A DNA stretch of 51,142 nucleotides from Deltaproteobacteria bacterium (GCA_016934455.1 JAFGSX010000259.1:1-51142); one strand, 5' to 3'; counted from the stretch's first letter, positions 2,467-20,229 are shown. The notes: generated by a model from the sequence alone, not told the origin. Program-made: numbers and translations.

Positions 2467-2597
2467 CCTTGCAAATTAGGACTATTTCTCCCTGATTGCA
2501 TGGTAAAGACCGGGCACATGCAACGGGCTGCCGTGTTGCCGACCGGGCGCAGCCGCCAGCGGCGCTGGGCACGCTGTTCGGGCGATGAGGACGCTGG

Positions 2598-3017: not shown

Positions 3018-3091
3018 TTTGGGCTCCGCGATGATCAGGGTGGTCTGAACAAAAGCAAGAGGCACGCCAGAAACGCACCCTGCGTCTGACG

Positions 3092-3121
3092 ATAACATGC
3101 TGTTTTTATTGATGTTTACAA
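3092..3121 (-). promoter_or_regulatory. Weak sigma70-like promoter candidate in an AT-rich patch (TTGTAA-18-TGTTAT)
   Basis: It lies in the 200-nt gap between the pbpC stop (3220) and the lipoprotein start (3017). Each hexamer matches consensus at only 4/6 positions. Confidence 0.25.
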
Positions 3122-3219
3122 AATACGTCGCGCCTGCTCGAACCAGAGATCGGGCAGACCACCGAGAATCGCGACATGGGAGTCCGGATCTAGTGCTGCG
3201 AGGCAGTCGAGCGCGGCCG

Positions 3220-5607
3220 TCAATCGACCACTGTGACCGTGATCGGCTGGCTGCGCGCCGGCCGCTGCGCCATGGATGCCTGCACCACGTGGCGACCCGG
3301 CGTGAGCTGCCAGCGAAACTGGTGCGGGTAGCCGACCTGCGCCACCGGCACGCCGTCGACCAGCCAGACGATCGACTCGGCGCGCGGCCGCACCTGCGCC
3401 TCGAAGCGCAGCGTCGCGAACTCGACCGGGGTGTCCGGATCCCACAGGTAACGGCCGTTGTCCGGCGGGCTGACGATGCGCACCTGCGGCTCCTCGAACG
3501 GCGGCGGCCCGCACAGCGGGCTCGGCTCCCGGGGCGCCAGCTCGAGTCGCTGCTGCCGCGCCCAGACCTCGTAGCGCTCCGGCAGGTCGAGCAGCAGCCG
3601 CTCCTCGGCCAGATCGCGCGGGCAGTCGGCGCTGGCCAGCAGGCCATTGCGGCGATCGACGCGCACCCGCCGGTGAAAAGGGCACACTTTTACCGGCTCG
3701 CTGCCGGGTGCAAAGTGCTCGACGGCCGGGTGCGGGCAGTCCGGCCCGGCCAGCAGTCCCGAGAGCGAGCAGACGGTGGCGGCGACGTACTCCGGCGGCG
3801 GCGCGAACCGCTCTGCCACGGCGCGCCAGGGCTCGATCGCCGACGTCGCCAGGTCGAGCATCTCGTGCGCGGCCGCGGCCGCGCCCCTGGCCCCGGTGAT
3901 CCGGTTCATGCTGCTGCAGTCGTGGTTGCCGACCCAGACCACCACCAGCGCGCGGTCGCTGAAGGCGACCGCCCAGGCGTCCCGAAATCCCTGGCTGGTG
4001 CCGGTCTTGACCGCGGCCGCGTAGTCGTACTCGAGCGGGCCGCCGCGCCGGAAGCTGGGCGCGCGCGCCTCGTCGTCGGCCAGGATGTTGCGGATCTGCT
4101 GCGCCGCGCCCCGCTCCAGCAGCCGGCGCCGCGGGGCGACCGGCTCGTCGGCCAGCCAGCGCAGCGGCACGCTCTCGCCGCCGTTCGCGAGCATCAGGTA
4201 AACCGCGGCCAGCTCCTCGGCCGTCAGGTGCAGGTTGCCCAGCGCCATCCCCAGGCCGTAGGCGTCGGGCTGGTACGAGATGCCGCGCACGCCCGCGGCT
4301 TCGAGCAGGCTCAGCACGGGCTCGATGCCGACCGTCGACAGCAGGCGCAGCGCCGGGATGTTGCGCGAGTTACCCAGCGCCGGCCGCAGCAGCAGCGGCC
4401 CCATGAACCTGCCGCCGATGTTGCGCGGCAGGTAGGCGCGGCCCGCCTCGGCGACGAAGTCCATCGGCGTGTCCTCGAGCTCGCTGGCAGCGGTGAAGCC
4501 GCGCTCGAGCGCCAGCGCGTAGATGAACGGCTTGAGCGCCGAGCCGGGCGAGCGCTTGACCTTGCCGTAGTTGATGGCGCCGCGCTCGCTCTCGCCGAAG
4601 TAGTCGGCCGAGCCGACGTAGGCCAGGATGTCGCCGGCGGCGGTGTCGATAACGAGCCCCGCGGTGTTGCTGGCGTGCAGCCAGCGCAGCCGGCGCAGGT
4701 TGCGTTCGAGGATCTGCGCCACCTGCTGCTGCAGGTCCAGATCGAGCGTGGCGGTGGTCACCGCGTCGGGGCGGCCGCGCACCAGCTCCGACCAGTCGAG
4801 CACCGCGTGCAGCGCCTCCGGCCGGCGCGCCGGCCGCGGCACCAGCCGCAGATCGCTGGCCAGCGCCTGTTGCAGCTCATCGGCGCCAAGACGGCCGCGC
4901 TGGTGCAGACGGCGCAGGATGCGGTGCGCGCGCTGCAGGCCGCGCTGCTGGCTGGCGCCGTGGTGGGGGTTGAGGCGGCCCGGCGCCTGCGGCAGCCCCG
5001 CCAGGTAGGCGGCCTGCAACCACGACAGATCCTCGAGCGGCTTGTCGAAGTAGTAGCGCGCCGCGCGCGCCGCGCCGCGCACCCGGTTGCCGTAGGGCGC
5101 GATGGTCAGGTAGTGGCGCAGCACCCGATCGTGGCCGTGGCGCTGCACCAGGATCAGCGCCTCGAGCGACTCGCGCAGCTTGTTCCAGAGATGGCGCGCG
5201 CCCGGGGACTGCATGCGCGCCACCTGCATCGGGATCGTCGACCCGCCCGAGACCACGCGCAGGTGGGCCAGGTTCTGCCGCAGCGCCCGCCCGATCGCCA
5301 GCAGCGAGACCCCGCGGTGGCGATAGAAGCGGTGGTCCTCGGTCTCGACGGTGGCGATCGCGATCCGCTCGGGCAGCGCGTCCGGCAGCGGCCAGAAGCC
5401 GAGCAGCTCGCCGTCGCTGGGCACCTCGCCGAGGTAGCTGCCGCGGCGGTCGAGGATCAGCTTGGACGGCGGCGGCGCGATCAGCTCCGTGGTCAGGGTG
5501 GCGCCCAGGACGAGGATCGCCCCGGCGGCCAGCCCGATCGCGGCCAGAGCCGGCCAGCGCCGGTGCGCGCCGGGATCGCGCGCCCGATGGTTTTTACGGC
5601 CTAGCAT
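3220..5607 (-). CDS. pbpC: Penicillin-binding protein 1C (bifunctional glycosyltransferase/transpeptidase)
   Basis: The start is MLGRKNH.. followed by a TM segment. Glycosyltransferase motif: TEDHRFYRHRGVS. SxxK motif: GSALKP. The C-terminal BiPBP_C-like tail reads ..VRIVSPPDNGRYLW..LVDGVPV... ATG 5607 overlaps the upstream stop (ATGCTAG). Confidence 0.9.
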   Translation of the reverse strand: MLGRKNHRARDPGAHRRWPALAAIGLAAGAILVLGATLTTELIAPPPSKLILDRRGSYLGEVPSDGELLGFWPLPDALPERIAIATVETEDHRFYRHRGVSLLAIGRALRQNLAHLRVVSGGSTIPMQVARMQSPGARHLWNKLRESLEALILVQRHGHDRVLRHYLTIAPYGNRVRGAARAARYYFDKPLEDLSWLQAAYLAGLPQAPGRLNPHHGASQQRGLQRAHRILRRLHQRGRLGADELQQALASDLRLVPRPARRPEALHAVLDWSELVRGRPDAVTTATLDLDLQQQVAQILERNLRRLRWLHASNTAGLVIDTAAGDILAYVGSADYFGESERGAINYGKVKRSPGSALKPFIYALALERGFTAASELEDTPMDFVAEAGRAYLPRNIGGRFMGPLLLRPALGNSRNIPALRLLSTVGIEPVLSLLEAAGVRGISYQPDAYGLGMALGNLHLTAEELAAVYLMLANGGESVPLRWLADEPVAPRRRLLERGAAQQIRNILADDEARAPSFRRGGPLEYDYAAAVKTGTSQGFRDAWAVAFSDRALVVVWVGNHDCSSMNRITGARGAAAAAHEMLDLATSAIEPWRAVAERFAPPPEYVAATVCSLSGLLAGPDCPHPAVEHFAPGSEPVKVCPFHRRVRVDRRNGLLASADCPRDLAEERLLLDLPERYEVWARQQRLELAPREPSPLCGPPPFEEPQVRIVSPPDNGRYLWDPDTPVEFATLRFEAQVRPRAESIVWLVDGVPVAQVGYPHQFRWQLTPGRHVVQASMAQRPARSQPITVTVVD

Positions 5608-6587
5608 TCGCGGCACGGCACGCCACAACTGACCGGCTTGCACACGCCGAAACAGTCGCGGTGGCTTCTGACCTGGACGGAGCAATTTCCGGTGCAGCGG
5701 CATTCGAAAAAGCAGGGATCGCCGTAGCCGGAGACGCAGCTCGTGCAGGCGCCGCTCCAGCATTCGGCGTCCTCCCCGCACGACGTGCCGTCGTGCTCGA
5801 ATTCGTCCGTGCACTGGCCGTTGCTGCAACCGTAGACGTGGCAGGGTTCGCTGCCGCTGCAATCGCGGCACAGCGCGCCATTGACGCCGCAGGAGTGCAA
5901 CTGGGTCCCGGCCACGCAGCCGCCGTCGGCAGCGCGGCACGCCAGCGGGGCGCAGGTCGCGCAGGTCGGTGACTCACCGAGGCAGTTGTTCTGCGTGCAG
6001 TCCTGCTCCAGTTGGCGCGCGCCGCAACCGAAGCTGTCGACCTCGCAACTGTAGACGTCGCCGTCGTGGCAGTGGACGCCACTGCACTCGTCGACGGAAC
6101 AGACGCACTGCCCGTCCGGCGTGCACTGCGAGTTGGCGCCGCACACGCCGTCGACGCAGTCGCTCCACTGCACCAAGTCGATGCACACGCGGTGGCCGCA
6201 CTGCTCGCACGCCGGCGGAGCGGTGCCGCCGCTGCAGGCGCCGTGGCACGCGATCGTGGCGCCGCAGGAGCCGTCCTCGGCGCACGGCGCACCGAACCCG
6301 TCCACGCAGCCCGCGTCCACACGGGCAGCGTCCGCGCGGCCAGCGTCGATCGCGACGCAGATCCAATCGCGGCAACTCTCGCCCGCGGCACACGCGTCGT
6401 CGCTCTGGCACCGCGGCGCCTGGCACCTGCCGCGCACGCATCTCAGGCCGGGCGCGCAGGCCTCGTCCCCCTGGCACGGCAGCCCCTCGCCGCCTCCCAT
6501 CGCGACGCACATCTCGCATCCGGTCAAGGCGGCGAGCGCGGCCAGGGCGGCCAGGGCGGCCGCGGTTCGCGGATGGCGTCGCGGCAT
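5601..6587 (-). CDS. Cysteine-rich secreted lipoprotein (52 Cys in 328 aa by my count)
   Basis: GGTGGA-N4-ATG at 6587. The signal is MPRRHPRTAAALAALAALAALTGC. The remainder is C-x(2-8)-C repeats resembling myxobacterial Cys-rich repeats. The stop overlaps the pbpC start by 7 nt. Confidence 0.75.
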   Translation of the reverse strand: MPRRHPRTAAALAALAALAALTGCEMCVAMGGGEGLPCQGDEACAPGLRCVRGRCQAPRCQSDDACAAGESCRDWICVAIDAGRADAARVDAGCVDGFGAPCAEDGSCGATIACHGACSGGTAPPACEQCGHRVCIDLVQWSDCVDGVCGANSQCTPDGQCVCSVDECSGVHCHDGDVYSCEVDSFGCGARQLEQDCTQNNCLGESPTCATCAPLACRAADGGCVAGTQLHSCGVNGALCRDCSGSEPCHVYGCSNGQCTDEFEHDGTSCGEDAECWSGACTSCVSGYGDPCFFECRCTGNCSVQVRSHRDCFGVCKPVSCGVPCREC

Positions 6588-6679
6588 GGATCCACCGACA
6601 GCGTGAATTCCATCCAATGATAGCAGACGCGACGACGTGCTTCACCCCCGGCTGCCGCACCGGCGAATGCCTGCGCGCG

Positions 6680-7759
6680 TCAGGGCAGCGTGGCGCGGCA
6701 GCCGCCCGACCAGTTGCCGCTGCAGTCGTAGATGGACTGGCTCGTCGCCACCAGGCCGTCGGGCCAGCTTATGGACGCGGCGGTCCAGACGTGCCAGGGC
6801 GCCAGGTCCTGGATGTCGACGACCACCAGCTTGCCCCACAGGTTGATGATCACCCGGCCGTCCGAGTCGGTGCTGCCGCTGCTGTTCCAGTGCTCGACCA
6901 GCACCGTGTAGATCCCGTCCTGCGGGCGATCGAGCCAGATGTTCTCGGGGCCGTAGCTGTACAGCCAGTCGACGTCCTTGTGCGGATCGTCCGCGGAGTC
7001 GCCGACCACGCCCCAGTCCGGGGATGCGTGCACGCACGAGGTCCAGGTGCAGTCGCTGGCGTCGTCGTTGATCTGACCGCCCGGCCGGATCAGGTGCAGC
7101 TCCCAGTCGACGCCGATGGCGTCCCACACCAGCGTGATCCGCATGTCGGCGTCCACGCAGCTACTGGTGCTGACGCGCGTCACCAGCACGTAGCTGCAGG
7201 TGGCGTTGGACCAGATGCGCTTGACCAACGAGTCGCCGCAGAAGAGAGGCACCGTGACCGAATAGGAGCCGTCGCCGGCGGTCGGGATCTCGCCGCTGAT
7301 CTCCTCCTGGTTGCGGCCGCGCACGTAAAAGGTGCCGTTGCCGACCGCATTGTCGACGACTCCCGAGAAGGTGTACGAGGTCACCTCGCCCGCCTGGATG
7401 GTGGTCGTCGCCGGCTCGGTGTCCGGGCAGTTGCCGGTGCCGTCGGTGTACTCGCCGGGCTGCTGGTGGCCGGGCGCCGGATCGAGCTCGGGCTCGCGCT
7501 CGACGCTGCCGCGGTCCAGGCGCACCGCATCGCGGCCGCCGGCGTCGCTGCCGCGGTCGGCGCCACCCGCGTCGGTGCGCCCGTCGGCGGTCGCGGCGTC
7601 GCGCGCCGCATCGCCCGCCGCGTCTCCACCGCCGCTATCCGCGGCCCCGCCGTCGCCGCCCCCGTCTTGGGCCGGGCCGGCTCCGCAGTCGGCGCAGCCC
7701 GCCAGGGCGCAGATCGCGATCGCCGCCAGAAACCACACCGCTCTGCCTCCACGACGCAT
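6680..7759 (-). CDS. YfaP/DUF2135-like lipoprotein
   Basis: AGGGGG-N6-ATG at 7759. The signal is MRRGGRAVWFLAAIAICALAGC, followed by a D/G/A-rich linker. The core is MRITLVWDAIGVDWELHLIRPGG..DWLYSYGPENIWL..DGIYTVLVEHW. This matches my memory of the DUF2135 pattern (i.L.Wd..D.DLHv.eP.g ... GyGPE.y ... G.Y.v.V). Only the C-terminal 359 aa of track ORF 6680..11497 are real. Confidence 0.75.
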   Translation of the reverse strand: MRRGGRAVWFLAAIAICALAGCADCGAGPAQDGGGDGGAADSGGGDAAGDAARDAATADGRTDAGGADRGSDAGGRDAVRLDRGSVEREPELDPAPGHQQPGEYTDGTGNCPDTEPATTTIQAGEVTSYTFSGVVDNAVGNGTFYVRGRNQEEISGEIPTAGDGSYSVTVPLFCGDSLVKRIWSNATCSYVLVTRVSTSSCVDADMRITLVWDAIGVDWELHLIRPGGQINDDASDCTWTSCVHASPDWGVVGDSADDPHKDVDWLYSYGPENIWLDRPQDGIYTVLVEHWNSSGSTDSDGRVIINLWGKLVVVDIQDLAPWHVWTAASISWPDGLVATSQSIYDCSGNWSGGCRATLP

Positions 7760-7785: not shown

Positions 7786-10700
7786 CTATTTCTCGTGCTC
7801 GCCGCTGACCACGATGCGCATGCCGTCGCCGCGGCCGCGCACCTCCTCGTGATACATCTGCTCGGCGTGGGCCGCCGGGTGCACGAATGAGCCTTCGACC
7901 GTGGCGCGGACCCTGAAGTGGAAGCTGTAGCTGCCGGCGGCCAGCTCGGTGAAGTAGTAGCGCACCTCGTGGTCCAGCCGCTGCACGTAGGTCGGCGCGA
8001 TCGAATCGGCCTCGCTCGGCCTGGCCTCGGCGCCCGAGGTCTGCAGCTCGGGATTCATCAGCTCGAGCCCGGCCGCAAACGGCACCACCAGCGCCACGTG
8101 GTAGCGCCGGGCGTCGACGGTCAGCCGGGTGTGCAGCTCGAGGATGTCGCCCACCGCCAGCCGCTCGACCGCCCCCTTCCGGTCCTCGAAGTGGGTCGGG
8201 GTCGAGCCGTCGGCGTACAGGTGGGTGGCGCCGCGCTGCACCAGGAACCCCTGCTTGAGCGCCTCGGCCTGGTCGCCCGGCGCCGCCGGCAGGTAGCTGT
8301 AGGCGACGCGGGCGTCGATCCGGGGCGCGCCCGACAGCTCGACCCGCAGCGCCTGCTCGCCGCGCACGTCGAGCGACGCCACCCGGTGCCGGTCGTCGAG
8401 GCTGAGCACGCCCGGGCTGCCCAGCGCCAGCCAGGCCTTGACCGGCTTGAGCTGCGCCTGCTCGAGGTAGGCAATCAGCGCCCGCAGCGCCGCCCGGTTC
8501 TCGTAGGTCGAGCCGAAGCCGTAATGGGCCGACGACTTGGCCAGCAGCGCCTCGAGCAGCGCGCTCAGCCGCTCGTCCCCGGGCGACAGCCGCACCAGGT
8601 TCTCGAGCACCGCCGCCAGCGTCGCGGTGCGGCTGCCCAGGTAGCTGCCGCTCCAGTCGCCGCGCCGCCAGCGCAGCCCCTGGACCACGCGCTTGCCCTT
8701 GAACAGCTTGAAGTCGACGCTCTGCCACAGCTCGTCGCGCAGCGCCCCGAGGTTGGTCTCGAACAGCCGGTTCTGCCGCAGCATGGCGGCGGTCAGATCG
8801 GACAGGCTGGACAGATCGAGGCCGCTGCGGCGATGGAACATGTCGATCAGGTAGTGCTCGTCGCCGCGCCCGATGAGCGCCAGGGCGCGGTGGGCGGCGG
8901 CCTGCTCGTTGTAGCGGTAGGCCGGGTCGAGCCGGCGGTAATCGCTGCGCAGGCTGCGCTGCAGCGCCTCGACGGCGCGGGTCTGCACCTTGTCGGGGGC
9001 GGTCAGCCCGAGCGAGCGGGCGCTGGCCATCAGCTCCACGGCGCGCGCGGTCATGCTGACGCTGCCGGCGCTGCCCGGCCAGGCCCCGAACAGGCCCTCG
9101 TCGTCCTGGTAGAGCGACAGCTCGTCGAGCAGCTTCTTGAGGTGGGACTTGACCTGCGCCGCGTAGTGGGCGCTCAGGCCGAACCGCCCGAGCGCCGCCC
9201 CCACCTCGGCCTCGGCCACCAGCGCCGAGATCTTCTGCTCCAGGCAGCCGTGCGGGTAGGCGGCCAGGTAATCGATGCCGGCCACCGCGGCCAGCATGCC
9301 GGGCACCGCCGAGATGGTGATGCGCTGCCGCGCCGTGCCCGGCCGCGGCGGCTCGGGGAACGGCTTGAGCGTCGTCACGCCGCCGTGGATGGTGTCGAAG
9401 TAGGCGTAGTGCTCGACCCGGCGGTCGGGCAGGATCGGCACCTCGACCTCGAAGGCGTCGCCGACGCCGTCGCTCAACCGGGTGACGTCGACGCGCACCT
9501 TGACCGAGGTCTGCGCAACGGCGTCCTGCGCCTTGACGCTGGCCTGCCACAGCCGGCTGGCGGCCTGGTTGAGCCGCAGCTCGACCCGCTGCTTGCCGGC
9601 CCGCACCTCGAGCGGGCCGGTCACCTTGAGCTCGACCGTGCCCGGCCCCTCGGCGCCCTCCACCAGCCGCGCCACGCCGCCAAGCCAGAAGCGGTCGCCC
9701 TGGCGCACGACGCGCGGAAGCTGCGGCTGCACCAGCACCGGCAGCCGCACCCGCAGCCGGCTGTGGAAATAACCGAAGCGGCGGAAACCGGCGGCCGCCA
9801 CCGCCCGCACCTGAAAGTTGGTCAGATCGTCGGACAGGGTGACCGGCACCACCAGCCTGCCCGACGGTCCCACCTCGAGCGTCGCCTGGTAGTAAGGCAC
9901 GGTCTCGAAGTTCTTGCGCACCACGCGCTTGCGCGAGATCCCCTCCCCCTCGGCGTCGGGTTCGCCGTCGCCACCCGGCTCCTCCTCCTGCTCGACCAGC
10001 CGGCCGACCACCCGGTTGCGGGTGTCGCGCACGCTGGTGCGCCTGGTGTTGGGCACGACAAAGCCGGTCAGCGGATCGAGCGGCTTCTCGGGCGCCAGCG
10101 ACAGCACCGCCTCGTCCACCAGCCACAGCGTGACCTCGCCGCCGAGCGGTTTGTTCTTCTCGTCCTGCAGGGTGACGATCAGATCGACCCTGGAGCCAGG
10201 TCGCGCCGTCTCCGGGTGCTGCACCTTTACCTGCACCGTGTTGGCGATCGGCTCCACCTCGAGGTCGAGGCTGGCGCCCAGCGTCTGCGGTCGGTAGCGG
10301 TCGTCGTTGCCCTTGCCGTCGCCCAGGCGGCCGCGCATCAGCACCACGTGCAGCGGCAGGTTGGGCACGTGCAGCGGCGAGATCTTGACCGGCACCACCG
10401 CCTTGCCGCCGCGGACCTCGGTCCAGCGGTACTCGTTGCGCTCGGGCTGCTCGACGATGACCAGCGCCTTGCCCGCCGCAAACGGGCTCTTGACCAGGAG
10501 CTGCGCGGTGTCGCCGGGCTGGTACTTCTTCTTGTCGGTCGCCAGCTCGAACACGCCCTGGCTCGCCTTCTCCCACGCCAGCGCTTCCTTGCCGCCGACG
10601 TAGAGATCGGCCGACAGCGTCTGCACCCGACCCAGCTTGTCGCGTCCGGTCAGCTCGACCACGTAGACGCCGGCCCGCGCGATGGCGAAGGTCGGCGTCA

Positions 10701-13611
10701 CCGGCCGCGCTTGCGTGGTGATCGCGATCTCCTTGAGCTTCTGGTCCTCCTGCTCGGTGATGTACTTGGCCTCGCCGGTGGCGAAGTTGGTCTCGCGCAG
10801 GTGGCTGTGCCAGATGCGGCGGTAGAGCCGGACCAGCACCTCCTGGCCCGCCAGCAGCTTGTTGTCGACGCCGACCGCGATGATCTCGGGCTTGAGCTCG
10901 AAAGCCTTCTCGGAGTAGCGCTGCAGCTTGAGCCCGAGCACGAACGGCGGCAGCGCGGTGGCCTCGTGGACGGCGCTGACCTGCTGGTTGTCGGCGCCGG
11001 TGACGGTGGCCTCGAAGCGGTAGATGCGCGGCGAGGCGTCGAGGTCGAGCGCCGGGTTGACCTCGATCTCGGCGCCGCCGTCGTCGTCGAGCGTGCCGCG
11101 CCGGCGCTGGGTCTCGGGAGCGCGCGCCAGGCCGGGCCGGGCGAACTGCGAGCTGGACGCGAACAGGTAGCCGGGGCGCCCCTCGGGCAAGTAGTGGTAG
11201 GGCCGCCGCGTCACCACCCAGTCGATCTGCTCGCCGGCGACCGAGCCGCCGGCGTAGTAGCGGGCCGCGGCCTTGACCTTGAACGGCTGGTCGAGCCGCA
11301 CTTTGGCGGCACCGGTGAGTTGCACCTCGAAGGTCGGGATGCGGTAGGCCTCGACCTGGAAGGTGCGCGTCGCCAGCGTCTGCGCCGGCTTGACGCTGAA
11401 CAGCTCGAGGGTGTAGCGGCCGCTGGCGACCTCGCCGCCCTCGTGCCACTCGGCCGCCAGGCCGCCGAGCCGGCTGAACTTGAACGGCAGCAGCCACTCC
11501 TCGCCGCCCGGGCCGCGCAGCTTGAGCCCGAAGTTGGTGGCCGGGCCGGCCTCGAGCAGGTCACCGCCGCGGCGCTGGCGCACGAAGCCCTTGACGTAGA
11601 CCTTCTCGCCCGGCCGGTAGATCGGCCGCTCCGTGAAGACGAACCCGAGCAGCCGGTCGTCGGGCGGCGGCGGCACCTTGTCGGTCAGCCAGCCCAGCCA
11701 GTGCGAACCCGGCGACCAGTGGTTGTTGGCGAACCGCGGCGGCGGATCGCGCGGGTCGAGCACCAGGATATCCTCGCCGCTCTGCACCGCGATGCGGAAC
11801 AGGCTGCGCCACCACTCGGGATTGGGCTTCAGGAGCGCCCGGCCCTCGCGGTCGGTGACGATGAGCTGGGCCTCCAGCGTCGGCGGCGCGCGCTTCTCGC
11901 CCGGCTTGGGCTCGGGTGGGTTCTTGACCATCTCGAGGGTGATCCGCGCATTGGCGACCGGCTCGGCGCGGTCGAGCGTGCGGACGTAGAAGACCGCCTG
12001 GTCGCGCTCCTCGACCACCGTCAGCGCCAGGTTGGTCACCTGCACCCGGGTGTAGACCCGCTGCGGCGACCCGGTCAGCCGGCGCAGGCCGACCAGGTAG
12101 GTGCCGGGCCGGCCCGCACCTACCGCACCGTCGAGCAGCGGTCCGATGTCGAGGCCGAAGTGGGTGGTGCCGCCCTTGTCGCCGAGCGGCAGGTCGACCA
12201 CCTGCGACACCAGCGGCGAGCCCAGCAGCCGCAGGTGGCGCACCAGGTCGCCCGACGAGATGTAGCCGATGTCGGCGGGAGTGCGCGGCGCCGGCTCCTC
12301 GCCCGGGAACGGCGGCGCCGTCTCCTCGTTGATCGCGAGCGGGCTGCTGGGAAACGGCCACAGCCCGAGGTGCAGCGGATCGACCCGGTAGATGCGCACG
12401 TCGACCCGCTTGTCGCCGTAGCCGACCACCGGCACCATGCGCGGCCCGCGCGCCTCGAGCACCGACTGCGCCTGCTCCCACTTGACGAAGGGCTTCTTCC
12501 AGCCGAGGTAGAAATAGACCTCGGGCGAGCCCGGATCGGCCAGCGGCCGGTCGCTGTCGTCGACGATCGGCGCGGCCGCGATCCGCATCCGGTACAGCAC
12601 GTCGGGCACGAACTTGCCGCGCAGCGCGACGCGCTGGCCGGAGACGGTGAAGTTGAGGTCGGGCACCGCCGGCTCGAGCCGCACCAGCTTCTTGAGCGCG
12701 GTCAGGCCGAGATCCTTGACACTGGCGGAGAACATGAGCTGCGGCCTGTCGCCGGTGTTGCCGCAGGCCAGCGCCAGCTCGCGCGGCACGCGGGCGGCGC
12801 CGACCAGCGGAACGCTGGAGCTGCCGCACGCCACCGAGACCAGCGAAAACGGCAGCCGCGTCGCCAGCCGGCCCTCCCACAGCACGCGCCCCTCGTCGCC
12901 GAGCGCCAGGCTGACGTTGACGTGAAGCTGCTTGCCCTCGGGCACCTCCTCGTCGAGGGTGATGGCGTAGGTCGCCGCGTCGCGGTGGCTGGCGCGCGGC
13001 AGCAGCGTCAGCGCGTAGCGATCGATGCTGCGGCGCGGGGCGTCGGCCAGGCCGGGCCGGTCGCGCACGTCGAGCTTGATCATCTTCTGCAGCGCGCCCT
13101 CGGGCAGCGCCTGGGGAAAGGTCAGCGTGAAGGTCCGAAACGGCTTGAGGTGATCGCTGCCCGAGGCTGGCGCCATGGCCGACGGCGGCGACATCATCGT
13201 CGTCAGCACCGCCCGGACGACCCCGGGAAGTCCCTGCCGGGGGACGCCGCGCGCGCTGACCGCGAACCGCGCCAGCGCCGGCCACGGCTCGGCCGGCCTG
13301 AACTGCATGGTCTGCCGGTCGAGCCACGACCAGGCGCCGGGCCAGGCCGGCTCGATCTGGAGCCACCTGGCGCCGTCGTCCGCCGGGCCGCGGCCGGGGC
13401 CGACGTTCCGGTTGAAATAGACCGTGATCGGGTCGTAGCCGCGCAAGAACTTCTCGGGCAGGATGATCAGCCCTCGCCGCGCCGGCGCCTGTCCCTCGTC
13501 GCCCGGCCGATAGGGCTCGTCGCCACCGGCCGCCAGGGCCGCCACCGCGCTGGCCATCGCCAGCGCCACCAGCGCCCCGGTCCACCGTGCGATGCGCAGT
13601 GACCTGCTCAT
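7786..13611 (-). CDS. Bacterial alpha-2-macroglobulin family protein, 1941 aa, with the thioester motif present
   Basis: The start is MSRSLRIARWTGALVALAMASAVAALAAGG, an SPI-type signal with no lipobox Cys. It has long MG-domain-like architecture. AAYPHGCLEQKIS carries the thioester CLEQ. The ATG overlaps the upstream stop as ATGA. Confidence 0.9.
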   Translation of the reverse strand: MSRSLRIARWTGALVALAMASAVAALAAGGDEPYRPGDEGQAPARRGLIILPEKFLRGYDPITVYFNRNVGPGRGPADDGARWLQIEPAWPGAWSWLDRQTMQFRPAEPWPALARFAVSARGVPRQGLPGVVRAVLTTMMSPPSAMAPASGSDHLKPFRTFTLTFPQALPEGALQKMIKLDVRDRPGLADAPRRSIDRYALTLLPRASHRDAATYAITLDEEVPEGKQLHVNVSLALGDEGRVLWEGRLATRLPFSLVSVACGSSSVPLVGAARVPRELALACGNTGDRPQLMFSASVKDLGLTALKKLVRLEPAVPDLNFTVSGQRVALRGKFVPDVLYRMRIAAAPIVDDSDRPLADPGSPEVYFYLGWKKPFVKWEQAQSVLEARGPRMVPVVGYGDKRVDVRIYRVDPLHLGLWPFPSSPLAINEETAPPFPGEEPAPRTPADIGYISSGDLVRHLRLLGSPLVSQVVDLPLGDKGGTTHFGLDIGPLLDGAVGAGRPGTYLVGLRRLTGSPQRVYTRVQVTNLALTVVEERDQAVFYVRTLDRAEPVANARITLEMVKNPPEPKPGEKRAPPTLEAQLIVTDREGRALLKPNPEWWRSLFRIAVQSGEDILVLDPRDPPPRFANNHWSPGSHWLGWLTDKVPPPPDDRLLGFVFTERPIYRPGEKVYVKGFVRQRRGGDLLEAGPATNFGLKLRGPGGEEWLLPFKFSRLGGLAAEWHEGGEVASGRYTLELFSVKPAQTLATRTFQVEAYRIPTFEVQLTGAAKVRLDQPFKVKAAARYYAGGSVAGEQIDWVVTRRPYHYLPEGRPGYLFASSSQFARPGLARAPETQRRRGTLDDDGGAEIEVNPALDLDASPRIYRFEATVTGADNQQVSAVHEATALPPFVLGLKLQRYSEKAFELKPEIIAVGVDNKLLAGQEVLVRLYRRIWHSHLRETNFATGEAKYITEQEDQKLKEIAITTQARPVTPTFAIARAGVYVVELTGRDKLGRVQTLSADLYVGGKEALAWEKASQGVFELATDKKKYQPGDTAQLLVKSPFAAGKALVIVEQPERNEYRWTEVRGGKAVVPVKISPLHVPNLPLHVVLMRGRLGDGKGNDDRYRPQTLGASLDLEVEPIANTVQVKVQHPETARPGSRVDLIVTLQDEKNKPLGGEVTLWLVDEAVLSLAPEKPLDPLTGFVVPNTRRTSVRDTRNRVVGRLVEQEEEPGGDGEPDAEGEGISRKRVVRKNFETVPYYQATLEVGPSGRLVVPVTLSDDLTNFQVRAVAAAGFRRFGYFHSRLRVRLPVLVQPQLPRVVRQGDRFWLGGVARLVEGAEGPGTVELKVTGPLEVRAGKQRVELRLNQAASRLWQASVKAQDAVAQTSVKVRVDVTRLSDGVGDAFEVEVPILPDRRVEHYAYFDTIHGGVTTLKPFPEPPRPGTARQRITISAVPGMLAAVAGIDYLAAYPHGCLEQKISALVAEAEVGAALGRFGLSAHYAAQVKSHLKKLLDELSLYQDDEGLFGAWPGSAGSVSMTARAVELMASARSLGLTAPDKVQTRAVEALQRSLRSDYRRLDPAYRYNEQAAAHRALALIGRGDEHYLIDMFHRRSGLDLSSLSDLTAAMLRQNRLFETNLGALRDELWQSVDFKLFKGKRVVQGLRWRRGDWSGSYLGSRTATLAAVLENLVRLSPGDERLSALLEALLAKSSAHYGFGSTYENRAALRALIAYLEQAQLKPVKAWLALGSPGVLSLDDRHRVASLDVRGEQALRVELSGAPRIDARVAYSYLPAAPGDQAEALKQGFLVQRGATHLYADGSTPTHFEDRKGAVERLAVGDILELHTRLTVDARRYHVALVVPFAAGLELMNPELQTSGAEARPSEADSIAPTYVQRLDHEVRYYFTELAAGSYSFHFRVRATVEGSFVHPAAHAEQMYHEEVRGRGDGMRIVVSGEHEK
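9235..9246 (-). other. CLEQ thioester motif codons of the A2M
   Basis: The reverse complement of ctgctccaggca is TGC CTG GAG CAG, in the A2M frame. Confidence 0.85.
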
Positions 13612-16600
13612 GGCGTCGCTCCGATCCGTTGGAAGAAGTCGCGCAGATACTCCTCGGGCACGTCCCGCTGGGAACCCTTGAGCCCGAGCAGCACCGGCCT
13701 GAAGCGCTGCGGCGCCAGCTCCGGTGGCGCGCGCACGGCCAGCAGGTAGTTGCCGGCGGGCAGCTCGAGGAACTGCTGACAACCATGGCCGAGCAGCCGG
13801 TGGTTGACGTCGAGGACAGTGCACTCGAGCCGGTCGGCGTCGACCTGCAGCCCGAGCCCGACTCTCCCCGCCGAGGTGGTGCGAAAGCTGAAGTAGCGCG
13901 CCGCGCCCGGCGCGATCCACTGCTCGGCGCCGACGCCGTCGGCCAGCGCCGGCACCGGTTCGGCGGTCCAGCTCACGCTGCCGGTGGCCGGCGCTCCGGC
14001 AAAGGGCCGCAGCATGACGCGGTAGCGGCCCGGCTCGAGCAGGCGCTGCAAGGTGCAGGCGCCGCCCAGACCGTCCAGCTTGAGCAGCCGCGTGCCGTCG
14101 AACAGGGCGCCGACCCCCGAGTCGGCGCGCACATCGAGCAGGCTGCGCTGCCTGATCTCGACCGTGAAATCGTTGACACCCGGCTTGATCGGGATCGCCC
14201 GCGCCTCGCCCAGCGGCGGCGGCAGCTTCCGCGGCAGCAGCTTGCTCCAGCGCGCCACGTTGGGCTGCCCGGGGGCGAACACCACCGCGCGCAGCGGCCC
14301 GGGCGGGTGGTTGATCACCACCTCGGCGCCCTGGCGCGCCGGGATGGCGCCGCGACAACCGCCGCTGCGGCTGCCGTCGTCGCGCGTGATGGTGCAGCGC
14401 ACCTCTCCGTCCACCTCGACCAGCCGCGCGCCGGCGGCCGGCGGCACCCGCAACCGGAGCTGGCCGTGCTGGAGCGGCAGCGCCTCGTACAGGCCGCGCA
14501 GCACCACCTGCGGCGGCGCCGCGTCGACCAGCAACAGCCGCGCCTGCAGCCGACTCCCGTCGCCGCCGCGCAGCAGCAGCTCGCCGCCTTGCCCGGCCAG
14601 CAGGCAGCGGCTCAACGCCTCGCCCGGCGGGCAAAAATCGATCGCGGCTCCGGCGCGGTCGAGTTGCACGGCCCAGGTCTGCGGCGGCAGCGTGGCCTCG
14701 AGCTGAAACGGCGCGTCCGGCAGCGCGAAGCGGCCGACCTGCCCGCTCCAGGTGGCCTCGCTCTTGCCCGGCGCCAGGGTCGCGGCGCGCTCGGGGATGA
14801 GAGCGGCGATGCGCGTCACCGTCGCCGGCAGCGGCTTGTCGGTGGCGGCCCACAGCCGCAGCAGCGACTCTCGGGTCGCGCCGCTGGCGGCAAAGCAGGC
14901 GTGCGGTTGCTGCTCGGCGACCCCGCCCTCGAGGCGACAGGCGGGAGCCGCCGCCTCGCCGAACGGCACCCGCACCGCGACCAGGTGCAGGCCGGGCTGG
15001 CCGCTGCGCTGACGCTCGATCAATCGGCGCTGGCCGAGCTGCTCGCGTACGGCCGGGTTGTCATCGGCGCTCAGCTCGATCACCATCTCGTCGAGGTCGA
15101 GCCTGAGCTCATCGCGCTGCCCCACCGTCGACACCACCAGCGCCCCCGCCTCCAGCGGCGCGCTCGGACCGCAGGGCGACAGCAGGCCGGGCTCGGCCGC
15201 CGGCCGGCACCAGACATTGGCGGCTGTGCGATAGCGGCCGGGCCGGGCGATGTCGACCCGACCGGCCCGACCCGCGGCCACGGTGCGGCCGTGCAGCTTG
15301 CCGATCGGTCGCGCCTGGTGGCTCGCGGTCAGCTCGGCCCATCTCCCCTTGGTCCAGAGCCGGACGTTGAAGGGCTGGCCGGCCGCGTGCACCAGTAACT
15401 GGCAATGGCGCACGCTGTCCTCGCGCTGCAGCACGGTGCCGTCGCCGCGCTCGAGGGCGCACGAGAAGGCGCTCTTGGACCTGAAGTGCAGCTCCTGCAC
15501 GGCGTCACCCTCGACCGCGGGCAACGGCACCACCAGCGCCTGGTTGGCGGTCTTGAGCTTGGCGCCGTCGACCAGCCGGTCCAGGCGCCGGTCCGGCGGC
15601 GCCACCACCTTGACCCGGGTCGAGCCGCTACGCTGGTTTTGCGCCTCGAACACCAGCCGGTAGTCGCCGGCCGGCAGCGGCTCGACCAGGCGGCAGTTCC
15701 AGTCCGCGCCGTAGTCGGCGCTCTCGGCCAGCAGCGCGCCGCCGGCAGCGAACAGCCGGCAGCGCACGTCGGTCTGGCCCCGGGTGGCCAGGTGCAGCAT
15801 GCCCGCGGCGGGCATCCGCACGGTGGCCGAGCCGGGCACCGGCAGCTCCTGCTGCAGCCCCGGCGCCAGCACCTCCGAGACCACTCGCAACCGGTACGCG
15901 ATGGCGACGTCGCCGCGGCAGTGCTCCGTCACCAGCCGGTATCTCCCCGCCTTGAGGTCGACGGCCAGGTTGTCGTCACCGGACGGCTTGCGCCGCGCCG
16001 CCGCCGGCGGCGGTTGGTAGGCCGGGTCCGGCGTCTCGCCGTCGGACAGCGCGCCATCTCCCTCGTCGTCGACGTCGCCGCCGGAGCCGTCTGGCATCTC
16101 CTCCTCGCCGTCGCCGCCTTCGTCGTAGCCTTCGTCCTCGCCACCCTCCTCGACCGGCATCTCGTCCGGCTCCTCCTCGTACTCCTGCTCGTACTCCTCC
16201 TCATCCTCCTCCGACCCAGCGGCCGGCGGCTCGGCCGGCGGCACCGTCTCGATCAGTTTTTCCCGGTCACCGTCGACGCGGTAGAGCCGCCCCTGCATGC
16301 CGTTGGTGAGAGCCACCCGGACCGGCAGGTCCGCGCTCAGCGTGAACTGGAACTCGTCGCGGCCGTCGCGGCCGAGCTCCGCGTCGTACCAGGTGTTGAC
16401 ATCGATGGCGTGGCGTCTCTTGTTGCCGCGCAACACCAGCGCCGGCCGCACCCGCCTGATCTCGGTGCGGCGCATGCTCTCGACCGTGAGCGGCAACTGC
16501 GACCAGCGGTAGCGGCCGCGAGCCAGCTCGTGGCTCGCCCGGCAAGGGGTGGGGACTGCCACCAGCGGCCAGCCGTCGCGGTCGTCGAGCCGGCACTGCA

Positions 16601-18974
16601 GTTGCACGCCCTGGCCCGATGTGTCCAGGGCGTAGCGGCCCTTCTGGCCCACGCTCAGCTCCTGCTGCACCAGATCGCCGGCCCGGGCCCGGAAAAAGAC
16701 CTCGCCGTCGGCGCGCACGGCCGGCCCCCGGGTCGCCGGCCGCCGGCTCAGCAGAACGGATGCGCGGCCCCTGCTCTGGCCGACCGTCTTGGCGGTGGCC
16801 AGGTAGCGGCCGGGCCGCAGGTAGCCGGCGAGCAGACAGTTGCGACCGCGGCCGCCGCTGCGGTCTCTAGCGAGCTGCGGCGCCACCGGCGTGCGCAGCC
16901 GGCACTCGGTCGCCAGCAGCCCCTCGGTCGTCAGGTGATAGAGGCCGGCCTCGGCCACGTCGAACAGCAGCGAGTGCGACTCGGAGCGGTCGAAATCGAG
17001 ATAGATCGGCTTGCCGACGCCGATGGCCGGGATCGGGGCGAACCTGGGCGCGTAGCTGGCCAGCACCGGCGCCGGAGGTCGCGGCCGGGGCCGGCCGACC
17101 ACGGCGGTGACCCCGTCGACGCTGCGGTTGGTCAGGATCAGCTCGTCGCCGCTGGCCAGCGCCGGCAGCGCGCAGACGCCGTCTCTGCCGGCCACCGGAG
17201 CCCCGCTGCGCAGCGCGCAGGTCAGCGCACCGACCCCGCGCACCAGCCCGGCGCGTCCCGCCGCCGACGGCAACCGGACCTCGCTCTGGCCGTCGACGGT
17301 GATCGGCAGCGGCGTGTCCAGCGTCAGCGGCAGCGGCCGCAGCACCAGGCCCCGCGCCTGCACCTCGCCCAGCCGGTTGGTGCGAATGCGGTAGCGAACG
17401 CCGGCGGCGAGCGCGACGTCGGAGAAGCGGCAACCGCTCTTGCCGGGCGTCGGCTGGATCTCGGGTGGCTGGTCCGATTTCTTGGTGTTGGTGAATCGAT
17501 CGATCACCGACTTGAGCAGGCCGCCCTCCCGGTCGATGACCAGCTTCTCGATGCCGGCTTGGCCGCCATAGAAATTGAGCTGGTACTGCCCCGGACCGAG
17601 CCGGAGCTTGAGGTCGCAGCGCTTGGCCTTGGGGTCGCTCTTGGTCAGCCGATGGTCGCCCTGGTACAGCTCGCATATCGCCCGGGTCTCGCCGGAGGAG
17701 GCGATGCGGTACTCGCCCGACTCGAGCAGCTCGAACCACAGCGTGTAGCCCTGCTCGCGCAGGTTGAACTGCCGCGAGAACGGGTGCTTGCCGTCGATGC
17801 GCAGCGCGTCGACGGCCATCCGCTGCCACTGCCGGTCGGGCTGCCGCCGCTCGAGCGCGCAGCCGAGCGGCGGCGCATCGAAATCGGTCGGCACGTCGTG
17901 CAGCCCGATCAGGTAGCGCCCGGCCGCCGGCGCCTGGAACTCGAGATCGCCCTGCGTCAGATACTCGCCGTCGGCGAGCAGCCCCTTGGGTCTGGGCGCC
18001 CACTGGAGCTGGCCGCCGGTGCCGGGCTCGCCGGTGACGACCAGCAGGTGGCGTTTCTTTCCGCTCGCCGAGGTGGCGCACGCCGGCGCCACCGCCTTGG
18101 CCGCGACGCTGCAGCTTCCGCCGCGGCCGCCGGTCGCGCCACCCGCCGAGTCCAGCTCCCAGAACTCGAGCGACGTCGCCGCGGCCGGCGCCTGGTCGAG
18201 GCTGAGCGTCGCGAAGTGGGGCCCGGCGCCGATCTCGATCCACAGCCTGCCCCACGCCGGCAGCGCGAAGTCCAGCGTGCGCTCGGCGGGCGCCAGCGCG
18301 AAACCGTTGGCGACGTAGAGCGCGTCGTCCTCGCTGCCGCGCGTCCACCGCTGCGGCCGGGCGCCGTAGGCCACCAGCAGGTAGTCGCCGGCCTCGAGCC
18401 TGCCGCGCAGGTGCCAGAGCCATATCGGTTGCCCCGGCCGCGGGGCCAACTGCTCGCTGGCGGCCTCGATCTCCTCGACCCACTGGCCGTTGCGCCACAG
18501 CCGCACCAGCCCGGCGCTGCGGCCGGCCACGATCAGATCGACGCGGCGCGGCTTGTCATTGTGAATCCAGTGCGAGACCTGCTGGCCGGGCGCGAGCCTC
18601 AGCTCGGCCGACTGCCGCTCGTCGAGCCGCACGCCGCCGGGGTTGAGCTCGGCAAACGGCGCGACCGCGAGCGCCACCTGGCCCTTGCCCTTGACCGGCG
18701 ATCGCAGGCGCAGTTTGTAGCTGCCGCTGTCGAGCAGCAGATCGAGCTCGCAGTTGCTGGTACCGGACGCGCCGCTGCTGTCGAACGGTCCGCGCAGGTG
18801 GTCGACGATCTCGCACGCCGTGCCCGAGTCGCTGCGGGCGCTCAGGTGATACATGCCGGCGGCGTCGATGGTGAGGATCGCCTCCTGCTGGCCCCGGGCC
18901 GGCACCGTCGCCGGTTTGACGGCAAGGCCGGGGACGGCACACAGCAGAGCGAGCGCAGCGACAGTGAGCGACAT
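13608..18974 (-). CDS. 1788-aa secreted multi-repeat protein (two-Cys, PPC-like beta-sandwich modules); function unknown
   Basis: GGGGAG-N5-ATG at 18974. The signal is MSLTVAALALLCAVPGLA. A repeated AG.Y.L ... C.L ... C.L..L..G.Y.L module recurs. An acidic low-complexity insert lies mid-protein. The stop is fused to the A2M start (ATGA). Confidence 0.85.
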   Translation of the reverse strand: MSLTVAALALLCAVPGLAVKPATVPARGQQEAILTIDAAGMYHLSARSDSGTACEIVDHLRGPFDSSGASGTSNCELDLLLDSGSYKLRLRSPVKGKGQVALAVAPFAELNPGGVRLDERQSAELRLAPGQQVSHWIHNDKPRRVDLIVAGRSAGLVRLWRNGQWVEEIEAASEQLAPRPGQPIWLWHLRGRLEAGDYLLVAYGARPQRWTRGSEDDALYVANGFALAPAERTLDFALPAWGRLWIEIGAGPHFATLSLDQAPAAATSLEFWELDSAGGATGGRGGSCSVAAKAVAPACATSASGKKRHLLVVTGEPGTGGQLQWAPRPKGLLADGEYLTQGDLEFQAPAAGRYLIGLHDVPTDFDAPPLGCALERRQPDRQWQRMAVDALRIDGKHPFSRQFNLREQGYTLWFELLESGEYRIASSGETRAICELYQGDHRLTKSDPKAKRCDLKLRLGPGQYQLNFYGGQAGIEKLVIDREGGLLKSVIDRFTNTKKSDQPPEIQPTPGKSGCRFSDVALAAGVRYRIRTNRLGEVQARGLVLRPLPLTLDTPLPITVDGQSEVRLPSAAGRAGLVRGVGALTCALRSGAPVAGRDGVCALPALASGDELILTNRSVDGVTAVVGRPRPRPPAPVLASYAPRFAPIPAIGVGKPIYLDFDRSESHSLLFDVAEAGLYHLTTEGLLATECRLRTPVAPQLARDRSGGRGRNCLLAGYLRPGRYLATAKTVGQSRGRASVLLSRRPATRGPAVRADGEVFFRARAGDLVQQELSVGQKGRYALDTSGQGVQLQCRLDDRDGWPLVAVPTPCRASHELARGRYRWSQLPLTVESMRRTEIRRVRPALVLRGNKRRHAIDVNTWYDAELGRDGRDEFQFTLSADLPVRVALTNGMQGRLYRVDGDREKLIETVPPAEPPAAGSEEDEEEYEQEYEEEPDEMPVEEGGEDEGYDEGGDGEEEMPDGSGGDVDDEGDGALSDGETPDPAYQPPPAAARRKPSGDDNLAVDLKAGRYRLVTEHCRGDVAIAYRLRVVSEVLAPGLQQELPVPGSATVRMPAAGMLHLATRGQTDVRCRLFAAGGALLAESADYGADWNCRLVEPLPAGDYRLVFEAQNQRSGSTRVKVVAPPDRRLDRLVDGAKLKTANQALVVPLPAVEGDAVQELHFRSKSAFSCALERGDGTVLQREDSVRHCQLLVHAAGQPFNVRLWTKGRWAELTASHQARPIGKLHGRTVAAGRAGRVDIARPGRYRTAANVWCRPAAEPGLLSPCGPSAPLEAGALVVSTVGQRDELRLDLDEMVIELSADDNPAVREQLGQRRLIERQRSGQPGLHLVAVRVPFGEAAAPACRLEGGVAEQQPHACFAASGATRESLLRLWAATDKPLPATVTRIAALIPERAATLAPGKSEATWSGQVGRFALPDAPFQLEATLPPQTWAVQLDRAGAAIDFCPPGEALSRCLLAGQGGELLLRGGDGSRLQARLLLVDAAPPQVVLRGLYEALPLQHGQLRLRVPPAAGARLVEVDGEVRCTITRDDGSRSGGCRGAIPARQGAEVVINHPPGPLRAVVFAPGQPNVARWSKLLPRKLPPPLGEARAIPIKPGVNDFTVEIRQRSLLDVRADSGVGALFDGTRLLKLDGLGGACTLQRLLEPGRYRVMLRPFAGAPATGSVSWTAEPVPALADGVGAEQWIAPGAARYFSFRTTSAGRVGLGLQVDADRLECTVLDVNHRLLGHGCQQFLELPAGNYLLAVRAPPELAPQRFRPVLLGLKGSQRDVPEEYLRDFFQRIGATP

Positions 18975-19079: not shown

Positions 19080-20054
19080 TCACGGTCTCGCCGACGTCTG
19101 CGGCCAGGTTCGGTTCTCGAACTCCAGGTCTTCCTGCTCCCGGTTGGTGTAGACGTCGAACCTCTTGGTCAAAGCGAATCCCTGCTGCGCCAGATAGTCG
19201 ATGAATTCCTGCTCGGTGCCGGGCCGCTCCGCGCCCTCCCCCTCGTAGGCCGGCTTGAGCAGGACCTCCACCTGCACGGTCTTGATCCGGCGGAGCGCGG
19301 GACCGGCCGACTTGACGACCTGCAGGTCGCGACCCTGGGTATCGACCTTGAGAAACTCGATCGGCAGCGACTCCGGGATGGCCGCCAGTATGCGTTCGAG
19401 CCGCAGCGCGAAGACGCGCCGGATCTCGAGCGTCTGCTGCAACCGACCAGCCCACGAATCGTCGCGCGACTTGGCGAGCGAGCTGGTGGCGTCGTAGGCA
19501 TTGACGTTGAAGTGCTTGACCCCCTCGCTGTGGTCGATGGCGACCGGAAACGCGATCAGCCGCGGATCGTCGGGCCAGGTCTGCCACGCCTCGCGCAGCG
19601 GATCGATCGCGATCAGCCCGAGCTCGGCGTGCTGCTCCAGCTCGGTCCGCGTCCGCTCCAGCTTGTAGGCACCGACGTCTATCCAGATGCGCTTGACCGT
19701 CGTCGGAAAGGAGAGCCGGGCCGACTGCGCGAAAATGTTGTTGTGCGAGCCGAAGACCAGGCGCTCGTGGTTGGCCTGGCTCATCAGGTCGGCGGCCGAG
19801 CGCATCGCCATCTCCTCGAACGCCTTTCGCAGCTCCTCGCCGTCGAGCCTGGCGTCGGAGGCGGGCGAATTCTCGCGCCCGGGCGCCTTGCTCGACGACG
19901 GACAGCCGGCCGCGACCAGCAGAAAAAGGATGATCGCTCGACTCTCGCCCGGCCACCTGCTCCGAAAGCACCAACGCCAGCGACCGGTCGTGCATTCCCG
20001 ACAGGAGGCGCCGGCAGCGGTCGAGTTGGCGGCAGCCCCGGCGCGTGCGGACAT
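19080..20054 (-). CDS. FkbM-family methyltransferase-like protein with a lipoprotein-type N-terminus; start uncertain
   Basis: IWIDVGAY.., ..LIAIDP.., ..FPVAIDHSEGVKHFNV..SSL.. and ..IEFLKVDTQGRDLQVV.. fit the FkbM pattern. SRAIILFLLVAAGC precedes it, but no ATG/GTG/TTG lies just upstream. The nearest in-frame Met codons are at 20054, 20069 and 20102. Confidence 0.55.
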   Translation of the reverse strand: MSARAGAAANSTAAGASCRECTTGRWRWCFRSRWPGESRAIILFLLVAAGCPSSSKAPGRENSPASDARLDGEELRKAFEEMAMRSAADLMSQANHERLVFGSHNNIFAQSARLSFPTTVKRIWIDVGAYKLERTRTELEQHAELGLIAIDPLREAWQTWPDDPRLIAFPVAIDHSEGVKHFNVNAYDATSSLAKSRDDSWAGRLQQTLEIRRVFALRLERILAAIPESLPIEFLKVDTQGRDLQVVKSAGPALRRIKTVQVEVLLKPAYEGEGAERPGTEQEFIDYLAQQGFALTKRFDVYTNREQEDLEFENRTWPQTSARP

Positions 20055-20229
20055 CCCATGAATCGGCATGGGGCGAGAGACTAGCGCGCAAGCGGGGTGC
20101 AATGAAAGTGCGATCCGTGATCGCGGGGCCGCCTCGCGCTACTCCCAGCGCGCGTACTCGAGCTGGCTGTTCAACCGCCGCCAGGCGATGTGCCAACGGA
20201 TGAGCGCCTTCGGGACCAGCGCGGACGGT

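Follow-up and report, generated by a model that had tools for sequence, protein, structure and literature searches.

An array of PPC-like domains encoded ahead of the thioester A2M gene and pbpC, and its possible role as a periplasmic partner of the A2M

Bacterial macroglobulins of the A2M type have been studied as a rudimentary periplasmic immune system. In this study, we analysed a 51,142-nucleotide stretch of DNA from a Deltaproteobacteria bacterium (GCA_016934455.1, JAFGSX010000259.1:1-51142; the window, at its full length) and examined the large gene that directly precedes its A2M gene. The product, here called the PPC-array protein, contains modules resembling the pre-peptidase C-terminal (PPC) domain. 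We found that the PPC-array protein, a thioester A2M and PBP1C form a three-gene module in which the PPC-array gene comes first, and that the PPC-array family spans about ten phyla and at least 119 species-level genomes. The family lacks a Pfam or NCBIfam model and appears to be undescribed. These results suggest that the periplasmic defence by A2M and PBP1C probably has an overlooked third component. We infer, giving the idea an even chance, that the PPC-array protein may serve a soluble, non-lipoprotein A2M as a periplasmic partner or scaffold without catalytic activity. The elements of the module in the window are as follows.

13608..18974 (-): PPC-array gene, first gene of the operon; ATG start, 1788 aa, stop codon included
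13608..13611 (-): ATGA overlap, in which the TGA of the PPC-array gene overlaps the ATG of the A2M gene
7786..13611 (-): thioester A2M gene, 1941 aa, Sec signal, no lipobox; Pfam bMG10, A2M_BRD, MG2 and A2M; motif YPHGCLEQ
3220..5607 (-): pbpC (PBP1C), probable start ATG at 5607, 795 aa, overlapping the end of the X2 gene (see below); Pfam Transgly, Transpeptidase and BiPBP_C; TIGR02073 at 490.7 bits

Since the G+C content of the window is about 71%, long open reading frames (ORFs) by themselves carry little weight. The 1788-aa ORF might thus be spurious, or its repeat a product of base composition; 29 ORFs of at least 150 aa overlap the region, and high-G+C windows are rich in spurious long ORFs. 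The probability of such an artefact is negligible. Full-length homologues of similar length were found in other phyla (n=119, down to 25% identity), AlphaFold2 gave confident models of both halves of the protein, and the repeat was absent from shuffled controls; together these refute an artefact. These results indicate that the ORF at 13608..18974 on the minus strand is a real gene, and the ORF list, the translation and the homologues bear out the first-pass annotation, which had placed a 1788-aa ORF directly before the A2M gene. That annotation had also called the two genes translationally fused. The stop and start codons do overlap at the junction, which reads ...CCATGAGC..., and translational coupling is likely, but there is no fusion protein. 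A 4-nt stop/start overlap was also found at three other loci (L001, L127 and L129).

To follow the family, a degenerate DNA pattern for two conserved motifs (G-x-GRN and, 82-85 aa further on, R-h-[DE]-D-x-x-GWP) was searched in GTDB species representatives. It was found in at least 119 of them, and tblastn confirmed every one as a family member. The genomes belonged to Myxococcota, Acidobacteriota, Spirochaetota, Fibrobacterota, Elusimicrobiota, Nitrospirota, Binatia, Magnetococcales and Alpha-, Beta- and Gammaproteobacteria. Among the matches listed, 52 loci were informative, with at least 600 nt present beyond the gene end, and an A2M gene lay immediately downstream on the same strand in 51 of these 52. 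Six distant homologues were also examined (from Wenzhouxiangella, Archangium, a bacterium with an LprI fusion, Thermoanaerobaculaceae, Telmatospirillum and an ENA metagenome). In each of the six, an A2M gene followed immediately on the same strand, the flanking genes were otherwise unrelated, and pbpC came after the A2M gene in all five loci whose contig extends past it. When the search was started from three myxobacterial A2Ms, a family gene was found upstream of each, with a 4-nt overlap in two. These results establish the linkage to A2M genes on which the first-pass annotation had made its proposal of an A2M-associated protein depend.

Two variants of the gene were seen among the homologues. 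In one alphaproteobacterial clade (P0073, P0074, P0083 and about ten others; L004 10001-15595), an LprI domain (PF07007, lysozyme inhibitor/DUF1311) is fused to the N-terminus; this domain is absent from the window protein. LprI of M. tuberculosis is known for anti-lysozyme activity, which the fusions described here might share. One of the family genes reached from the A2M side, upstream of a Myxococcales A2M gene in a long-read (nanopore) metagenome-assembled genome (L128, 2653-7956), was spread over three reading frames, owing to assembly frameshifts or as a pseudogene.

The PPC-array protein is about 190 kDa and wholly beta-structured. The AlphaFold2 models of aa 1-935 (predicted local distance difference test, pLDDT, 86.9; predicted template modelling score, pTM, 0.79) and aa 1000-1788 (pLDDT 87.6, pTM 0.63) were both all-beta, and their strand pattern delimited about 17 predicted beta-sandwich domains, D1 to D17. 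Along the protein, the features are the following, with hhalign values given as probabilities.

18921..18974 (-): probable Sec signal peptide, aa 1 to ~18, MSLTVAALALLCAVPGLA/VKP, read from the sequence
18645..18932 (-): D1, aa 15-110, PPC-like module with Cys54-Cys75, the most conserved domain; hhalign 93-96% against D5, D16, D8 and D10; mean identity to non-Myxococcota members 0.38
18291..18638 (-): D2, aa 113-228, PPC-like module; hhalign 93-95% against D8 and D5
17754..18290 (-): D3 and D4, aa 229-407, beta-sandwiches (AlphaFold2) not detectably related to the module; all hhalign pairs below 40%
17523..17753 (-): D5, aa 408-484, PPC-like module with Cys434-Cys453; seed-model E 4.9e-6; hhalign 98% against D10
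17079..17453 (-): D6, aa 508-632, larger beta-sandwich (AlphaFold2) after a low-confidence linker at aa 485-507; weak hhalign, 54% against D8
16440..17021 (-): D7 and D8, aa 652-845, two PPC-like modules; hhalign 96-98%
15867..16433 (-): D9, aa 848-916 and 1000-1036, PPC-like module split by an acidic insertion; hhalign 82-84%
15978-16223 (-): acidic insertion in the D9 loop, aa 918-999, predicted to be disordered; pLDDT below 50 at 918-932
15591..15863 (-): D10, aa 1038-1128, archetypal PPC-like module (DVRxRL...DDxxxDWN...LxxGxYxL) with Cys1072-Cys1094, from the alignment; its profile matches PF04151 arrays
14265..15572 (-): D11 to D15, aa 1135-1570, five beta-sandwiches (AlphaFold2) with one Cys pair each; identity to non-Myxococcota members 0.14-0.21
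13671..14189 (-): D16 and D17, aa 1596-1768, C-terminal PPC-like modules; hhalign 91-97%; identity of D17 to non-Myxococcota members 0.35
13611..13670 (-): short C-terminal helix, aa 1769-1788, ...VPEEYLRDFFQRIGATP; AlphaFold2 helix at residues 775-784 of the C-terminal half

The repeat was then assessed at the level of profiles. A seed hidden Markov model, made from the four example modules of the first-pass annotation, recovered extra copies at aa 408-472 (E 4.9e-6), 1615-1662 (1e-4), 769-833 (1e-3) and 990-1020 (6e-3); the best match among 21 reversed or shuffled control sequences was 0.03. Seventeen family sub-alignments (family alignment of 41 sequences) were compared all against all with hhalign. 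D1, D2, D5, D7, D8, D10, D16 and D17 were linked at 84-98% probability, and D9, rebuilt across the acidic insert, joined the set at 82-84% (against D8 and D16). By this profile comparison, nine modules are demonstrably homologous to one another. The remaining eight domains had no detectable similarity to the module, D11 being only marginally module-like (90% against D10), and self-BLASTP of the window protein returned the identity match alone. The repeat, for which at least nine copies had been counted by eye, is thus statistically supported, and a regular-expression count gave exactly 15 G-x-[YF]-x-h strands where about 15 had been estimated. The proposed unit of 55-65 aa corresponds to the core of the module, but the whole domains span 75-115 aa.

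Across phyla, the 17 domains were collinear with few gaps. D1, D7 and D17 were best conserved, at 35-38% identity to members outside Myxococcota, followed by D2 and D10 at about 30%, and D11-D16 were least conserved. In a conservation ranking, D7-D8 hold the best-conserved motifs of the family, GLLxT...G-x-GRN...YLRxGxY and RLEDxxGWP, and the C-terminal helix has the family consensus GxPxEVxRxxxxxxGxxP. Gly, Pro, Trp, Tyr, Asp and Asn make up most of the conserved residues of the family. The collinearity, together with the pTM of the N-terminal half, argues for a defined assembly and not a variable repeat protein.

We examined whether the family corresponds to a known one. The window protein had zero matches to Pfam and NCBIfam at E<=1, and neither database indicated an enzymatic domain in it. 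No peptidase domain was found by Pfam in the window protein or its homologues, unlike in proteins where PPC stands C-terminal to a secreted peptidase. The family profile and the D10 module profile found nothing significant among PDB sequences, Pfam found nothing on the longest homologues (2060-2511 aa), which were scanned for informative fusions, and all homologues carry the database name 'hypothetical protein'. These results agree with the first-pass annotation, which had recognised no named family and no catalytic motif.

The modules had also been likened to the PPC beta-sandwich. Single D10 modules matched PF04151 with E 0.03 at best, in 3 of 24 members. The distant homologue P0060 passed the PF04151 gathering score (29.3 against 25.9 bits), only via summed weak stretches, and three further homologues came near that score. 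A search of 1.84 billion representative proteins with the D10 module profile (E<=1e-3) matched 5062 of them, and the top non-family matches were tandem arrays. PF04151 was the top Pfam family in all ten non-family matches scanned, and the PF04151 and D10-profile matches coincided in P0184 (364-429 and 359-424), P0168 (492-551 and 487-550) and P0162 (50-115 and 44-110). With Foldseek against PDB, both halves matched 5iku (ColG s3a-s3b) at a probability of 1.0 and a template modelling (TM) score of 0.31-0.35 on the target. CUB-domain proteins scored equally, and the probability was about 1 for these and also for the HA70 and SIDT1 ectodomains. Foldseek against PDB found no whole-chain structural analogue, all query-length TM scores being <=0.15. 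The P0060 score, the retrieval of PF04151 arrays by the D10 profile and the ColG match together point to the nine modules being divergent PPC (PF04151) domains, probably jelly rolls like collagen-binding domains, and favour the earlier guess.

The nine modules share the PPC strand pattern D-V-x-x-x-L ... D-D ... L-x-x-G-x-Y-x-L. The PPC-type domains of the ColG and ColH collagenases bind insoluble polymers. Unlike PF04151 proteins, the window protein has no direct PF04151 match and no peptidase domain ahead of the modules, and unlike in PPC and ColG proteins the modules are set in a fixed order among eight other beta-sandwich domains. The tandem-PPC array proteins (for example P0120-P0128, 9-21 copies) have the same kind of module and matched the D10 profile at E 1e-97 to 1e-148. 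Their copies are near-identical and recognised by Pfam, their length varies from 544 to 4709 aa, and they are not A2M-linked orthologues. FG-GAP repeats were present in one of the ten scanned, and weak Por_Secre_tail matches fell on the PPC copies themselves.

Two traits of the window protein turned out to be specific to its clade. The protein has 31 Cys residues, including 12 intradomain pairs with a spacing of 9-22 residues, and these pairs, which occur in 12 of the 17 domains of this myxobacterial clade, are probably disulfides. Members outside Myxococcota have 0-14 Cys, mostly fewer than 10. The D10 alignment has Ala or Phe at the myxobacterial Cys positions, on neighbouring strands, and therefore the Cys pairs are probably clade-specific disulfide staples. 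The two-cysteine module of the first-pass annotation is thus real in the window protein, but it is confined to Myxococcota and does not define the family; we rejected the Cys pair as a family signature. The acidic stretch reaches 60% Asp+Glu in one run of 40 aa. The spacing in the D9 region was 179-185 aa in members without the insertion, compared to 265 aa in the window protein. Most Myxococcota add 60-85 acidic residues in the D9 loop, and the insertion is absent outside Myxococcota. A conserved bait region was considered for this stretch and rejected, as it is a Myxococcota-specific insertion inside D9.

The A2Ms linked to the family were next compared. Their length is about 1900-2030 aa, and they carry a Sec signal, with a possible lipobox in one of 70; the signal region of the window A2M has no Cys. 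The CxEQ motif was missing in two of the seven full-length linked A2Ms examined, L001 (Wenzhouxiangella) and L004. Against PDB, the match of the window A2M to E. coli YfhM reached only E=0.0017, and YfhM is deposited there as a lipoprotein. At the sequence level, the linked A2Ms are a deep-branching subfamily. The A2M gene abuts pbpC in the other genomes that were checked, whereas in the window two lipoprotein genes, X1 and X2, lie between them.

6680..7759 (-): X1, 359-aa lipoprotein with LAGC lipobox, YfaP/DUF2135-like, between the A2M gene and pbpC; from GC3 frame plot and sequence
5601..6617 (-): X2, cysteine-rich lipoprotein (LAALTGC...), at most 338 aa; from GC3 frame plot and translation
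3060..3080 (-): terminator-like hairpin 3' of pbpC, a possible operon end; from a consensus scan only

X1 had no match in Pfam, and its homologues are named 'YfaP family / DUF2135' by NCBI and JGI. In type II A2M operons, whose A2M lacks the thioester, YfaP/DUF2135 is one of the accessory genes. X2 had no match in Pfam or NCBIfam.

The near-obligate adjacency to the A2M gene, the frequent translational coupling and the similar size of the two proteins suggest a non-catalytic partner whose synthesis is matched to that of the A2M, and not a gene that is only loosely co-regulated. The fixed multidomain architecture with confident interdomain packing, the binding-type domains and the lack of a catalytic signature point the same way. 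According to this proposal, the PPC-array protein would be exported by the Sec pathway to the periplasm and would be roughly stoichiometric with an A2M that would itself be soluble rather than a lipoprotein. There it may dock, position or stabilise the A2M, by analogy with MagA, MagB and MagF for MagD. With so many binding-type domains, it might also catch lytic enzymes that enter the periplasm, and the LprI fusion in one clade fits the accepted role of the operon, in which the periplasm is shielded from such enzymes. Several points favour export: the hydrophobic N-terminus, the start of the fold (the first strand of the AlphaFold2 model begins at about residue 17, and pLDDT is below 50 for residues 1-13), the canonical Sec signals of distant, non-myxobacterial homologues, and the 12 intradomain Cys pairs.

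Other observations weigh against this proposal. The hydrophobic N-terminus of the window protein has no basic n-region, which leaves the signal peptide plausible rather than proven; the first-pass prediction of a signal peptide agrees with the hydrophobicity and with the distant homologues but not with this feature, and Sec export to the periplasm would be a reading of the sequence. In some genomes, 58-80 nt separate the PPC-array gene from the A2M gene, with no overlap. The lone exception among the informative loci, L103 from a gammaproteobacterial metagenome-assembled genome, has the family gene at 2188-7557 (-) and no A2M gene downstream; a DUF924-like ORF and a pseudouridine-synthase-like ORF were read there from the translations instead. 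To our knowledge, the type I A2Ms of E. coli and Salmonella function without a PPC-array partner, and therefore the partner is not needed for the basic trap. PPC domains are, moreover, generic binding or structural modules that indicate no particular ligand.

How closely the two proteins might work together can be read in different ways. The PPC-array protein and the soluble thioester A2M could form an obligate heterodimeric periplasmic trap, the partner serving as a second cage wall and/or a platform for recognising prey (proteases, lysozymes, bacteriocins); it would then take the role that oligomerisation has in tetrameric human A2M. We consider this rather improbable. If it were true, two large subunits would make up the bacterial macroglobulin system that is ancestral or most widespread, and the single-protein lipoprotein form of enterobacteria would be reduced. 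The protein might instead make no contact with the A2M and act as an independent, multivalent periplasmic decoy or binder of lysozymes, peptidoglycan hydrolases or bacteriocins, co-regulated via envelope breach. The LprI fusion in one clade and the ligand-binding nature of PPC/collagen-binding-type domains would suit such a binder, as would an A2M and PBP1C operon logic that is already 'one gene per threat' (PMC5764988). We regard it as unlikely but worth serious consideration, since the gene adjoins the A2M gene and never pbpC alone, the frequent 4-nt overlaps suggest tight stoichiometric coupling, and the conserved order of 17 domains better suits a specific assembly than a generic sponge.

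A self-standing, macroglobulin-like cage without a thioester, functionally parallel to the A2M and baited by exposed loops such as the aa 485-507 linker or the acidic insert, was also considered. The protein resembles the A2M in length (1788 aa against 1941 aa) and in its all-beta multidomain build, it has disordered loops, and Foldseek lists C5, A2ML1, TEP1 and ECAM with E down to 1.6e-6. These A2M-type matches had probabilities of only 0.1-0.8 with TM of about 0.07, and all 17 domain profiles scored below 5% probability in hhalign against an alignment of the seven linked A2Ms. There is no CxEQ motif in the 1788 aa and no thioester, A2M or MG domain by Pfam, and the acidic insert is absent outside Myxococcota. 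Such a cage is very unlikely, and a divergent A2M paralogue was rejected on the hhalign result and the missing CxEQ. We are equally sceptical of an envelope structural, adhesive or peptidoglycan-binding scaffold that would assist PBP1C instead of the A2M, for instance as a guide for repair synthesis. Although almost all complete operons include pbpC and PPC domains of collagenases are established binders of insoluble polymers (compare the 5iku match), the PPC-array gene never adjoins pbpC, and in the window X1 and X2 part the A2M gene from pbpC, yet the junction between the PPC-array and A2M genes still overlaps. Pfam found no known peptidoglycan-binding domain (LysM, SPOR, OmpA or PG_binding) in the window protein. 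A non-catalytic partner of the A2M is thus the reading we prefer.

Outside the operon, genes for an FkbM-family methyltransferase (ending at 19080) and an ADP-ribosylglycohydrolase lie upstream on the same strand (19080-21237, minus strand), and no link of these genes to the operon was seen in other genomes. An ORF at the edge of the window (10-2376, minus strand) has an unusual mix of AAA_14, DUF4382, Glucodextran_B, Big_7 and TIG domains; automated ORF calling may have joined two genes here. At 40001-42000, the G+C content is 0.586 compared to about 0.70 elsewhere, and this part could be foreign or RNA-coding DNA.

In the type I bacterial operon, described as a two-gene unit, the A2M is presumed to trap proteases and PBP1C to repair the wall, and in the type II operon accessory proteins bind and stabilise the A2M MagD (PMC5764988). 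Our literature search, whose reach did not include the survey of Budd et al. 2004, found no mention of a third gene in A2M-pbpC operons. The present results indicate that outside enteric models an equally large, conserved and unannotated gene precedes the A2M gene. If the two proteins cooperate, the mechanism, localisation and regulation of bacterial macroglobulins are incompletely described in most lineages. It would be worthwhile to name the family, to build a model for it and to solve a structure, and members in genera that can be cultured, for example Anaeromyxobacter, Archangium or Wenzhouxiangella, offer a test system.

Neither the domain type nor the operon is new; the family and the arrangement of three genes seem not to have been described before. 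As in the type I operons (E. coli yfhM-pbpC and Salmonella Sa-A2M), the window has a CxEQ thioester A2M gene followed by pbpC on the same strand, with the same presumed logic. Unlike them, it has an extra gene of about 1750 aa before the A2M gene, and the X1 and X2 lipoprotein genes before pbpC. The window A2M differs from type I YfhM in having no lipobox, in being barely alignable with it (E=0.0017) and in being about 290 aa longer, taking a length of about 1650 aa for E. coli YfhM. The accessories of the type II operons (MagA/B/C/E/F of P. aeruginosa and YfaP/Q/T/A of E. coli) are likewise non-catalytic periplasmic proteins encoded with an A2M, and the likeness we propose is a functional analogy only. 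The PPC-array protein had no match to DUF2135, DUF2300, DUF1175 or DUF2138 in Pfam/NCBIfam, and the YfaP-like gene of the window is X1, separate from the PPC-array gene. The PPC-array protein also differs from these accessories in size, being five to ten times as large, and in its linkage to an A2M of the thioester type.

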